A DNA stretch of 64,000 nucleotides from Octopus vulgaris (GCA_951406725.2 OX597818.1:90954001-91018000); one strand, 5' to 3'. Shown: positions 40,112-62,437, counted from the stretch's first letter. Made by a program: numbers and translations. The notes: generated by a model from the letters alone, not told the origin.

Positions 40112-40815
40112 CATATATACATACATAAGAAATCACTCGAAGCTCATAGGTAAGGCTGCAAATATTAGCGTGTAAATCTTGGGAGGACCGACTGCTGCCA
40201 TTGGCATTATTCACCGAAAAGGTTTTTTTCAAGCCAACATATATTTAGATGCTATAATTTATAGCTTTATATGTGAGCTTCGCGATACCCTCAAAGCACG
40301 ATTAATTCGGGTCCTCTCAAAAGTTTATAATATTCTTATGATGTCAACACAGACAGACAGATTGACATTGTAACACACACAGACACAGACAAACAGACAC
40401 ACACATAAACAAACACAAACACACACATATGTAATTGATTTAGGCAGGAATAAGGATATATGTACCATAAAGAATTACTATAAACGTTATTCTAGCAAGG
40501 CAGGTGATTCTAACACCCTCAGTCATATGTGTGCGTATGTGCGCACAGATGTGTATGTGTATGTGCGCGTGTTGTGTGTGTGTATTTCTAAACATATATA
40601 ACAAGATGTATGTGAAATTTTGTGAGTGTGTGTTTCCTTAGATAAAAGCAAATGATATCTATGAAACCCAAAGAACACGCACATTCGAAAATTAGAATAT
40701 CACTTACGGGCATATGGCGTAGTGGTTAAGAGCGCGGGCTACTAACCCCAATATTCCAAGTTCGATTCCAGGCCTGGTGACTTGAATAATAATAATAATA
40801 ATAATGATAATAATG

Positions 40816-40893
<78 letters not shown>

Positions 40894-40896
<3 letters not shown>

Positions 40897-43108
40897 CTAC
40901 AGACCTATAACCTGCCAAACTACAGACCAATAACCTAAAAACTACAGACCAATAACCTGCCTCCCTACTATGTTCAAGGCATTTACTGCAGTGATATCGC
41001 AAAGGCTGAACAAGCACCAGGACGAAAACAAACTGTTCCCAGAAGAGCAGAAAGGATGCCGCAAGGGCTCATATGGCTGTAAAGATCAACTAATGATTAA
41101 TAAAGCCGTAACTGAAGACAGCCACAGAAAGAAGAAAGGCCTCAGTATGGCCTGGATTGACTACAAAAAGGCGTTTGATAGCATCCCCCACACATGGATC
41201 CTCGAAACACTAGCCATTAACAAAGTAGCACCAACAATCATAAAATTCATAGAGCACTCTATGAATAAATGGCAAACAGTCCTACACCTCCAAACAAAAG
41301 AGGGACTCATGAAAACCAAAGACATCCCCATTAGAAGAGGAATATTCCAGGGAGACACGCTCTCTCCACTCCTTTTCTGCTTGGCACTGTCACCTCTATC
41401 TGATATGCTAAATAGAACTGGATGCGGATATAAATGTTACGGCAAAACGATCAGCCACCTTTTATATATGGATGACCTAAAACTATACGCTGCAAATGAC
41501 AAACAGCTGGAAACACTATTAAAGACAGTTCATGGTTTACCAAAGAAATAGATATGAAATTTGGATTAGAAAAATGCGCCAAAGTAACCATGAAAAGAGG
41601 AAAACTAGTTAAGAGTAACAACATCACACTAGATAAAACCAATGAAATAAAAGAATTAGACCAAAGCCAAACTTACAAATACTTAGGAATCCATGAACTA
41701 GATAAGACACAACACACACAAATGAAGGAGAAAATAAAAAAGAATATTATAGACGAGTTAGATCAATACTAAAACCAGAGCTCAATGCTAAAAACAAGAT
41801 AATAAGTATCAACACTTTAGCTGTCCCAGTTATAAGTTACAGCTACAATATCCTACAATGAACTGTCCAAAATAGATAGGAAAACAAGAAAAATACTGAC
41901 AGGATCTGGGATGCATCACCCAAAATCTGACATAGAAAGACTATATATACAACGTATAGAAGGTGGTAGAGGCCTTATACAGCTGGAAAACTACTATAAA
42001 ATAACCACCATAGGACTGCAAAAATACCTACTTCAGAAGGAAGGAAAACTGATCCAGATAGCAGCAAAACACGAGCAAAACAAAAAAACTGTTCTCAGTA
42101 TTTAAGGAAGCTGACAAATACAAACAAGAAATCATACCACCTAATAAACACAAAGAAGAAGAAGAAGATGATGAAGAAACAACAAAAGCTATAAAACAAA
42201 TGAAATCCAAACTAAAAATAGAACAGCAACGAGCCATGATAAAACGATGGCAAGAAAAACCCCTTCATGGTAAATACTGCACTAAACTAAACGCAAAAGA
42301 AATAGACAAAGAAAAATCCCAGCAATGGTTGAGAAGCTCAGGACTCAAAGCAGAAACAGAGGGATTTTTAATTGCAGCACAAGACCAAAGCCTCCCCACC
42401 AGAAATTACCAAGAACATGTAATGAAAAGAAATATTACAAGTAACTGCAGAATATGTGGAGATGGACAAGAAACAATAAATCATATTATCTCTGGCTGCC
42501 CAGTCCTGGCTAAGAAGGAATATATTCACAGACACAACAGATTTGGGACCTATATACACTGGAAACTATGCCAACATTATGGAATAACAACAGAAAAAAG
42601 ATGGTATAGGCACACACCAGAAAAGGTCACAGAAAACGAGAAAGCAACCATACTCTGGGATATGCCGATACACACAGATAGAGAAATTAAGGCCAACAGA
42701 CCAGATATAGTTGTCAGAGATCATGAAGAAAAAAATGCTTTCTAATTGATGTATCAATACCGGCAGATGACAACGTGTCTCTAAAAGAAATGGAGAAACT
42801 CTCAAAATACAAAGACCTGGAAATAGAGGTAACTAGAATGTGGAACCTGAAAACAGAAACAATTCCTATCATAGTAGGTGCATTAGGCATGATAAAAAAA
42901 TATTCAGACAAATACAAAACAAAAACACCAGGACTTACAAACACATATAACATACAGAAAATTGCACTACTAGGCACTGTACAAATCCTACGCAGAACAC
43001 TTTCCATACAATAACCATCAGAGCATCACAACAAATCACAGCACATACCCAAGGCACACAGAGCTGCGCTCGGTAGTGAAGTGAAAGCACGCTATAAAAA
43101 TAAAACTA

Positions 43109-43111
<3 letters not shown>
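40894..43111 (+). mobile_element. R4/Dong-clade non-LTR retrotransposon (RT + CCHC + RLE), 5'-truncated and frameshifted
   Basis: RT motifs YRPITCLP, EEQKG, WIDYKKAFDS, GIFQGDTLSPLLF, YMDDLK. Zinc knuckle CRICG..ETINHIISGC and RLE motif RPDIV. Flanked by (AAT)n on both sides, the known Dong target. Confidence 0.9.
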
Positions 43112-43150
<39 letters not shown>

Positions 43151-43189
43151 TCCCTTAGGAATGAGAACCCAGATTCAAAATTTTCCATA

Positions 43190-43235
43190 GACACCTGATG
43201 AAGGCTAGAGAGTATTCTGCAGAAACGTTGTGCTA
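43190..43235 (+). ncRNA. Minimal hammerhead-like motif (partly decayed) in SINE tail
   Basis: GACAC CUGAUGA A GGCUAGAG AGUA UUCUGCA GAAAC GUU GUGCU. Core intact, palindromic stem III AACGUU, stems I and II imperfect. Confidence 0.6.
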
Positions 43236-44526
43236 ACAACAAACGAGATGAGGACAAATATCCGTCAAATGTAAATAACGTACATAATTCCTCATCTCTT
43301 AAATACAGAACTGTATCACTTACGGTTACAGAAAACACTTGAGTGTAGCTTCATAATAATATAAATATAGTAACAAAAAAAAAATTCATATTTCAGACAA
43401 AGTAGACAACATTGCCAAACGCGAAGGAATATCTCATAATTAGGAAATTCAGAGAATTTTACCATTATACCATAATTCTTTGGAATACTTTTCAGTATTT
43501 TCTTCACGACCTTATGATTCAATATAGTTATGTTTTCAAAGTAACTGTATTATATTGTGGAAATATGAATATGCTTCACATATCATTTATCATGAATTTC
43601 ACTGTTTAGCTCTCAAAGTAATCATTGTTAATGCTAGAATCTTGTCACCTCTCACAATATAAAAACATTTCTATACTGCCCCAGCAGAGAATGGTAAAAA
43701 TGAAGATGCACTGGAACGGCTATTTAGACTCGACTGGCTCGCACTTGCGGACAGCGGCAGCGGTGAGCAGGGATATGGTCCGGGGACCAAAATTGCTGGA
43801 AATCTCAACTGTCACATGCCTATTGGAGAGCGACCAATACCTAGACAGCATTTTACAAGTTCGCCCAGAAATCATCAGCTCCCAGTTTCGATTTCGTTAT
43901 GTGGTATCTTGTTAAATTAAGTAAAACGCAACTGTCTAAATCCACATCGAATTGATTGTAATTGTAATTCTGAAGGTACAGCATTGTTACACATTGTGTA
44001 GCACTGATTCTACAAGAGAATTGCATTAAAATTATATTCGTCTGTTGAATAATCAGCAATCTACAGGTTAATGCAATCAGCTTGGTACTTTAATTGATCA
44101 AATATCTGAACGCTCAAGGCCAAAAATTTGTTAATCCGCCTTTACATTTCCTATATTCTGGCAATTTGGGGTGTGCAAAGACCAACAGAAGCGCCTCCAT
44201 ACGAAACATGGCCAAATTAGTTTCACAGTTCAAATCCTTATCGATTCTTCCCAAACGGCATTGTAGAGATAATGTGTGTGTATTTGCCGTATGTGTATGT
44301 ATATATGTGTGTCTGTGTGTATACGTATATGTTTATATTAATATTTAGCAGAAAAAAAGGGTGACTCAAGGTCTGAGATTTCATATATATATGCACACAC
44401 ACACACACATATATATATATATAGATATATATGTATATATATATAAACGTATATATTTATGTATATATGAATGTAGGTATAATACACACACACACACATA
44501 TATACATACCTACATACATACATACA

Positions 44527-57707: not shown

Positions 57708-57710
<3 letters not shown>

Positions 57711-57988
57711 TAGTTTTATTTCTATAGCGTGCTTTCACTTCACTACCGAGCGCAGCTCTGTGTGCCTTGGGTATGTGCTGTGATTTGTTGTGATGCTCTG
57801 ATGGTTATTGTATGGAAAGTGTTCTGCGTAGGATGTGTGCAGTGCCTAGTAGTGCAATTTTCTGTATGTTATATGTGTTTGTAAGTCCTGGTGTTTTTGT
57901 TATGTATTTGTCTGAGTATTTTTTTATCATGCCTAATGCACCTACTATGATAGGAATTATCATGCCTAATGCACCTACTATGATAGGA

Positions 57989-60335: not shown

Positions 60336-61795
<1,460 letters not shown>

Positions 61796-62058
61796 TGCCA
61801 CGCCGGACAAAGTGCTTAGCGCTATTTCTTCCGGGTTTACGTTCTGAGTTCAAATTCCTAACGAGGTCGTCGTTGCCTTCCATCATTTTGGGTCTATAAT
61901 ATAAGCACCAGTCAAGCACTGCAGTCGATATTGTCGATTAGCCCAACCGCTATGACCACACCGCAAACTTTTCTTTGTTCCTTTGTTTGTGTTTTTGTTA
62001 TACATGATATAATGTAACCCCACGATTTTAATAACGATAGCTTCTTTTTTTTTTTCAG

Positions 62059-62174
62059 AGATGCCCAACTCGATGCTGCCAGTTCTGGAAATTGATAGAA
62101 AAATCCGAATTCCTCAGAGTATGGCTATTTCCAGATATCTGGCCTTGTCAAACTCTTTCGCTGAGATATTATGA
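62059..62174 (+). pseudogene. S-crystallin / sigma GST second coding exon, truncated at 62144 and running into LINE sequence to a premature stop
   Basis: Polypyrimidine tract + CAG acceptor (62041-62058). Phase-1 join gives [29 protein letters not shown], matching the family motif (MP..MLP.LEID....[11 protein letters not shown]). The expected REFG and donor are absent; the frame reads LSNSFAEIL then TGA at 62172-62174 in antisense LINE sequence. Confidence 0.85.
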
Positions 62175-62437
62175 TCACAGGGAATGCTCATGTCGATCAA
62201 TAAGCAAACTTTATTATTTTGGTCTTTCACAACAATATCTGGTTTATTGGCCTTGATGGTTCGGTCTGTATGTACTGGAAAGTCCCACAGAATGGTTACA
62301 TTTTCTCCTTCAGTTACAGCCTCAGGGTGGTGATTATACCACTTGTCGGCAGTTTTGATATTGTAATGCCGACTTATTAGCCAGTGGAGATATTGGCCAA
62401 CTCTGTCATGTCTTAATTTATATTCCACTGGTGCTAG
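62145..62437 (-). mobile_element. R4/Dong LINE RLE-domain fragment (third subfamily) lacking its 3' end
   Basis: LAPVEYKLRHDRVGQYLHW...ILWDFPVHTDRTIKANKPDIVV...IDMSIP...KEFDK, ending abruptly at the S-crystallin exon. Confidence 0.85.

Follow-up and report, generated by a model that had tools for sequence, protein, structure and literature searches.

Canonical Penelope-like elements (PLEs) of the endonuclease-positive (EN+) type, such as Pen2a_Av and other Penelope/Poseidon members, carry one open reading frame (ORF) for a reverse transcriptase (RT) with a C-terminal endonuclease, and their pseudo-long terminal repeats (pLTRs) extend over the ORF start (PMC8557442, PMC3846280). They are also described as having partial tandem copies, an inverted arm, a tail of ~30 nt, a target-site duplication (TSD), a palindrome at the pLTR 5' end and a minimal hammerhead ribozyme. 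These traits recur in a retroelement family of Octopus vulgaris, one copy of which resides in the 64-kb stretch of DNA analyzed here (the window, to which all coordinates refer unless a locus label is given). However, the pLTR promoters of canonical EN+ PLEs are presented in those reports as RNA polymerase II types, with TATA and initiator (Inr) elements, an intron and H3K4me3 marks, whereas the octopus pLTR contains a tRNA-derived head with the A and B boxes of an RNA polymerase III (Pol III) promoter, and short copies pile up at the start of this head.

The octopus hammerhead resembles the minimal hammerheads of metazoan PLEs (PMC4209133) in its type I core, in a helix I of 5 bp, in the unpaired nucleotide that precedes helix II and in a palindromic helix III, and in occurring as single or opposed copies. 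The word tRNA is absent from the available text of that report, which describes no Pol III head. In the short repeats Sm-alpha and Sj-alpha of Schistosoma (PMC6765202), a type I hammerhead comes after a Pol III promoter, but those repeats are arranged in tandem and cut into monomers, and the accessible part of the report describes no autonomous partner with a shared head. Non-LTR retrozymes (bioRxiv 10.64898/2026.07.22.740005) are, like the octopus copies, non-coding pLTR derivatives with type I hammerheads, but their available description defines them as tandem repeats with one hammerhead per unit and includes no tRNA head.

Short copies of the octopus family also share many features with tRNA-derived short interspersed elements (SINEs; SINE2), namely a tRNA-derived head with A and B boxes, a length of ~300 nt, non-coding sequence, high copy number and TSDs. 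They differ in that their partner is a PLE and not a long interspersed element (LINE), and in that the head is common to the autonomous element. Moreover, their 3' end is fixed at the PLE ORF start, without a poly(A) or simple-repeat tail, and inverted arms occur. Known tRNA-derived SINEs of octopus include OK, OR1 and OR2; the identity of OR1 and OR2 with the pLTR family is unconfirmed.

Small-RNA-derived Pol III promoters are present in the terminal repeats of the TRIMp3 elements Cassandra, Helenus and Ajax (PMC10886601). Unlike the octopus family, whose TSDs are most often 11-13 bp and whose arms are single or inverted, these are non-autonomous LTR elements with a primer-binding site, a polypurine tract and TSDs of 4-5 bp. 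In the available text, the author of that study expects that autonomous partners should not share such repeats; the octopus autonomous element does. PLE architecture, the pairing of Pol III with a hammerhead in Schistosoma, and Pol III heads in TRIMp3 terminal repeats are thus already known. A tRNA head inside the pLTR of an autonomous PLE is apparently new: the literature searched (with Repbase, Dfam and SINEBase outside the comparison) yielded no description of this arrangement or of the family. The octopus repeat annotation (PMC13282606), as far as available, gives class totals only, the word "hammerhead" is absent from its supplement, and its Zenodo library was outside the comparison.

Head and tail in the pLTR of an autonomous element

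The first-pass annotation took the insertion in the window for a SINE whose tail had been acquired from a Penelope pLTR, and proposed genome-wide co-occurrence of head and tail as a check. Searches of the host genome (2.8 Gb in 227 contigs) gave 3421 candidates for the tail and 284 for the head, 40 of each being scored, and the two parts lie at most 500 nt apart in 23 of 30 head loci, with the window's own copy among the seven misses. Six head loci share sequence 5' of the head, and the C-terminus of an endonuclease is readable in four of them. A search with this C-terminal sequence gave 2644 candidates; in the 30 loci examined, the head directly follows the ORF end in 25 and the tail is present in 25, and the five that lack a head are internal deletions. 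On the other side, in 20 of 30 loci chosen by their ORF 5' region the tail continues into the start of the ORF, which agrees with the proposal that it is Penelope pLTR sequence. Head and tail are both parts of the terminal repeat of an autonomous Penelope/Poseidon-type element, not a tRNA joined to a borrowed tail. The idea of a SINE that gained a Penelope tail captures the joint travel of the two parts, but it is wrong, or at least incomplete, because the head itself sits in the autonomous pLTR.

A related explanation assumes an independent chimeric SINE with its own master copies, from which the autonomous element later gained the head by template switching or recombination. Short arms are several-fold more numerous than ORF-linked arms, and some alleles differ between short and long arms (for example, T:A at hammerhead position N7 is 50:10 versus 8:12). 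The start of the head is also reverse-complementary to the TGCCC that precedes it, which could be a relic of joining. However, the allele contrast is confounded, since short arms were picked by head or tail sequence and long arms by ORF, and both N7 alleles are similar in the proportion of arms that begin at the head (12/30 and 14/30, with one and three ORF-linked). Furthermore, a pattern spanning the junction of ORF side and head has 612 exact matches, and 95 of the first 100 continue into the head; one continues as AAT-like sequence, and a sizeable head-less autonomous subfamily was not found. We consider this order of events improbable.

Starting at the pLTR ATG, one reading frame stays open across the hammerhead for 52 codons, and the other two frames run into stops. 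Its N-terminal peptide, taken from locus L223, aligns with the N-terminus of P0019, an 847-amino-acid homolog from another source (45% of 115 amino acids, E = 6e-29). P0019 is the one homolog among 72 in which the peptide overlapping the hammerhead was seen (residues 18-61), and its form (GR..WPKR against GW..QPKR) is compatible, at the peptide level, with a compensatory change in stem II. The element's ORF is 62% and 48% identical to two parts of P0019. A near-complete element (L091) consists of an inverted pLTR, a truncated direct pLTR, the ORF, head, AAT linker and tail. Its RT matches Pfam RVT_1 (5.8e-08) and its C-terminus resembles the GIY-YIG region of P0066 (26% of 133 amino acids, E = 2e-13); the Pfam GIY-YIG profile has no match on L091. 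As in EN+ PLEs, a single ORF encodes an RT and, at its C-terminus, a GIY-YIG-like endonuclease, and the pLTR lies in partial tandem and overlaps the ORF start. A DKG motif and a CCHH endonuclease, with no CX2-5CxxC zinc-finger linker, were recognized by inspection of the translations and, by the criteria available in PMC8557442, point to the Penelope/Poseidon clade.

The majority sequence of 172 tails is paired in stem I (GACAC/GTGTT), stem II (GGCTG/CAGCC) and the palindromic stem III (ACGT), so the stems sought by the first-pass annotation do appear in a consensus. This majority corresponds to a minimal type I hammerhead as described in PMC4209133 and is predicted to cleave; 32 of the 172 copies are intact. 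Rfam scans matched neither a hammerhead nor a tRNA, and Rfam matches to microRNAs and small nucleolar RNAs are simple-repeat noise. Cleavage is predicted at tail position 80, whereas 246 of 256 tail matches end at positions 159-165 (138) or 120-145 (108), the other 10 ending elsewhere and only five ending before position 120. Because these ends are away from the predicted cut, self-cleavage does not set the ends of copies.

The insertions themselves have the footprint of a Penelope element. Among 128, 87 are head-to-head inversions and 41 are single, all dispersed and none in tandem arrays. Flanking repeats of at least 8 nt accompany 41 of the 128 (a few of these repeats are simple), whereas shuffled flank pairs have them in 2.6% of cases; the modal TSD range contains 26 of the 128. 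PLEs are described with an inverted 5'-truncated arm and a one-sided tail of 30-40 nt (PMC8557442, PMC3846280), and the one-sided Penelope tail is about 26-35 nt here. Together, the inversions, the one-sided tail and the 11-13-bp TSDs constitute a Penelope-type footprint, in keeping with the earlier suggestion that Penelope enzymes are the likely movers. At one locus (L030:1640-1750), the 3' end carries a tandem duplication that comprises the final ~29 nt of the tail and ~25 nt of flank. A retrozyme or Sm-alpha-like repeat, in which the hammerhead would cut tandem transcripts into monomers that are then reverse transcribed, would explain why a type I hammerhead follows a Pol III head, an order shared with the Schistosoma elements (PMC6765202), and retrozymes are reported to derive from pLTRs (bioRxiv 10.64898/2026.07.22.740005). 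Nevertheless, this explanation is largely refuted by the tail ends, and also conflicts with the dispersed single or inverted arrangement; we regard it as extremely improbable.

Exact 19-mers of the hammerhead number 8169 (N7=T) and 2208 (N7=A) in the genome. Such a 19-mer is present in 46 of 113 arms chosen independently of the tail, and scaling by this fraction gives a rough total of ~25,000 arms. Copies diverge from the majority by 4.0-4.4% outside CpG, which, with the rate of 0.0036 per million years quoted in PMC13282606, corresponds to a family age of roughly 10-20 million years, given an octopus host. No relatives with flanking sequence were found when metagenomes were scanned. Three near-identical ORF-linked copies with shared variants (L150, L151 and L152, at G000:C1 7.93, 8.95 and 9.05 Mb) probably reflect segmental duplication.

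The 5' boundary and transcription by Pol III

Among 25 distinct genomic tRNA sequences, representing only six isotypes, the head best matches Arg-TCT (z = 8.4) and Arg-TCG (z = 8.0). ARAGORN reports no tRNA in the window or in 22 loci, so the head is tRNA-like but not a tRNA. Its consensus A and B boxes fit the standard motifs.

Copies end sharply at this head. When head loci are taken in order of position, 25 of 30 end 0-8 nt upstream of the head, five extend for more than 200 nt (three of these being near-identical duplicates) and none lies in between; in a wider set of 90 head-bearing arms, 79 terminate 0-9 nt ahead of it. Exact k-mer counts, from patterns slightly unequal in length and degeneracy, are 788 at about -140, 1053 at -28 to -10, 3735 at the head start and 8169 plus 2208 in the hammerhead, amounting to a 3.5-fold step over ~30 nt at the head versus 1.3-fold over the preceding ~120 nt. 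A peak of loose ends occurs at the same boundary in contigs of four runs labelled organisms B-E.

We propose, with a probability of about 0.6, that the insertion in the window is a decayed solo pLTR of the autonomous Penelope/Poseidon-type element, and that such copies arise from Pol III transcripts. The A and B boxes would recruit Pol III to start just before the head, and the element's own RT and endonuclease would copy the resulting ~300-nt RNA into new sites, acting in trans. In this way, a full element could give rise to short SINE-like copies of its terminus by the thousands. The head probably acts as a Pol III promoter, of which the sharp 5' boundary and the lack of TTTT on the sense strand are indirect indications. 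The hammerhead of master copies may cleave as a dimer, separating the ATG from the ORF, in which case only uncut RNA would serve as mRNA.

On the sense strand, TTTT is absent from the 2678-nt majority sequence of 11 long copies (individual copies have 0-5). By comparison, a second PLE family of the same genome, which is Neptune-like (L081:2620-3075 and L269-L298; CxxxxCxxC linker, 1088 candidates), has 14 TTTT runs in 2320 nt, and its coding part accounts for seven of them (binomial P = 0.003, uncorrected for the higher T content of this family). Neither a hammerhead core nor A and B boxes were found in its 2320-nt majority, which has a depth of 5-8 copies in the first 900 nt. As support for Pol III, the absence of TTTT is suggestive only.

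Several observations weigh against our proposal. The TTTT deficit is modest (P = 0.004 by base shuffle and 0.031 by synonymous shuffle, but 0.084 and 0.19 under first- and second-order Markov models), and GGGG is likewise absent from the majority. Hammerhead positions decay as fast as their neighbors (4.4% versus 4.0%), which dead copies would be expected to do; since copies decay neutrally, covariation within the family is uninformative, and the stems are read from the majority sequence only. Hammerhead-bearing arms that start further 3' (inside the head, AAT or tail, or interrupted) make up 17/30 and 13/30, so that about half of such arms indicate that ordinary truncation is common. Finally, a 5-bp palindrome, TGCCC-AC-GGGCA, one of only seven distinct such sites in the element, lies at the boundary, and palindromes at pLTR 5' ends and self-priming are a Penelope trait described in PMC3846280. 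A Pol III start predicts the sharp 5' end, but self-priming at this palindrome could also produce it.

The main competing explanation involves the same element with an inert promoter. Short copies would be ordinary 5'-truncated insertions, formed where reverse transcription halts or folds back on itself because of the TGCCC/GGGCA palindrome or the tRNA-like fold; after its capture into the 3' untranslated region, the tRNA piece would have been a passenger. The position of the palindrome coincides exactly with the boundary, 17 of the 79 arms that end there fold back at it, copy number climbs steadily toward the 3' end, and most single minimal hammerheads are read as truncated PLEs in PMC4209133. 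However, the other 62 boundary arms have different junctions with the identical end, and this end lies beyond the structured head, to its 5' side, where the end of a template might be expected. Near the next palindrome, at about -522, only five long arms end and there is no comparable step, in a sample that is ascertainment-biased. The A and B boxes are also still canonical. We consider an inert promoter unlikely, although it carries real weight.

RNA-seq data were available as three raw runs of one study (organism B, ~6% of each run; strandedness unspecified), in which short Pol III RNAs are easily lost. Depth is similar in both mate orientations, and the profile tracks copy number, with no peak of read beginnings or ends at the head or cut site. 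At one locus (L221:2960), 200-300 reads in each of the runs X21-X23 break at the 5' boundary with one dominant flank, which suggests a short copy inside an abundant host transcript.

A more far-reaching scenario is that Pol III transcribes from the upstream pLTR through the entire 2.7-kb element, which would make it an autonomous protein-coding retrotransposon with a SINE within its terminal repeat, and that the hammerhead in the first codons toggles the RNA between the roles of mRNA and template. In its favor is the TTTT-free sense strand, set against the 14 runs in the Neptune-like family. However, a Pol III RNA would be uncapped and therefore difficult to translate, and the cut would remove the ATG; hammerhead-aided cap-independent translation has been reported for viruses (PMC13725137). 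We view this combination as doubtful.

If short copies do arise by Pol III initiation in the pLTR, an autonomous retroelement can generate a SINE-like population by means of a tRNA promoter in its terminal repeat, without the separate birth of a SINE, and each tandem or full copy could emit a short parasite of itself. Small-RNA-derived Pol III promoters would then extend from SINEs and non-autonomous TRIMs (miniature terminal-repeat retrotransposons) to autonomous Penelope elements, against the expectation voiced for LTR systems in the available text of PMC10886601. Dated insertions that share a defined 5' end number in the thousands and are a resource for studying the Penelope integration mechanism, including the inverted arm, tail and TSD. 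Also, short copies are likely to be misfiled as SINEs or tRNA pseudogenes in annotations, although they are PLE ends.

The window copy and its nested LINE

Features of the copy in the window are listed in Table 1. The 12-mer TATCACTTACGG occurs exactly twice in the 64 kb, as the direct repeats that the first-pass annotation placed around head, linker and tail, and 392 nt lie between them once the nested LINE is removed, close to the ~390 nt it had estimated. It had also located the A box, anticodon arm, B box, (AAT)n, hammerhead core and LINE correctly. Since the ACGG and TATCA of the TSD match the element's 5' start and its read-through into the ORF, there is microhomology at both ends. The copy is a single arm with tail, and its TSD is typical of the family. 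As had been noticed, its stems are imperfect: stem II is broken and stem I has one mismatch. With these defects, a TTTT at 43181-43184 and a frameshift, the copy is probably dead.

Table 1. Positions of the pLTR copy, its parts and the nested LINE in the window
Feature	Position	Strand	Remarks
Left TSD	40698-40709	+	Exact 12-bp repeat; TSDs of the family most often 11-13 bp; its final 4 nt (ACGG) match the element 5' start
tRNA-derived head of pLTR	40706-40784	+	Best matches tRNA-Arg TCT and TCG; begins at the family's sharp 5' boundary
A box TGGCGTAGTGG	40715-40725	+	Motif position in head
7-nt loop CTACTAA	40739-40745	+	Within head
B box GTTCGATTC	40760-40768	+	Motif position in head
(AAT)n linker of pLTR, left part	40785-40894	+	Repeat scan; target of nested LINE
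Nested 5'-truncated, frameshifted Dong/R4-type LINE	40895-43111	+	RT, zf-RVT, CCHC, PD..D; foreign to the Penelope element
(AAT)n linker, right part	43112-43151	+	Repeat scan
pLTR 3' part, first ~52 codons of Penelope ORF	43150-43314	+	ATG 43160-43162; reading frame broken in this copy
Minimal type I hammerhead	43190-43234	+	Cleavage predicted after 43229; stem II disrupted here; architecture as in PMC4209133
Core piece GACAC	43190-43194	+	Hammerhead, this copy
Core piece CTGATGA	43195-43201	+	Hammerhead, this copy
Core piece GAAACGTT	43222-43229	+	Hammerhead, this copy
Optional ~30-nt Penelope tail	43283-43314	+	On one arm of inverted insertions; bimodal family 3' ends; see PMC8557442, PMC3846280
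Right TSD	43314-43325	+	First 5 nt (TATCA) also the read-through into the ORF

The LINE inserted into the (AAT)n of the pLTR at a later time. It matches RVT_1 (3.2e-27) and zf-RVT (1e-05, just under the curated cut-off), and CCHC and PD..D endonuclease motifs were recognized by inspection. Dong/R4 LINEs are described as having an RT and a restriction-like endonuclease and as targeting (TAA)n (PMC7998251), and the nested element fits this group by its RT, its restriction-like endonuclease motif and its location in (AAT)n. A 22-nt unit is present three times at its 5' junction (40894-40961), which suggests repeated template jumps at the truncation. On the opposite strand, a further copy of this LINE's 3' end (251 nt) lies inside (TAA)n at 57708-57958 (-); it shares 98% identity with the nested copy, and its 5' junction carries a tandem duplication of 33 nt. 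Given this 98% copy, the nested LINE is younger than the pLTR that hosts it. The LINE was rejected as a partner of the pLTR copies, because there is no similarity between it and the tail.

The host genome is dense in microsatellites, and the (AAT)n linker or its border frequently hosts other insertions (L034, L035, L044, L049 and L068), including one of the same Dong/R4-like family in L068. At 60767-62310 (-), beside long (ATT)/(CAT) arrays, lie three fragments of greater age that have 70-74% similarity to the nested LINE.

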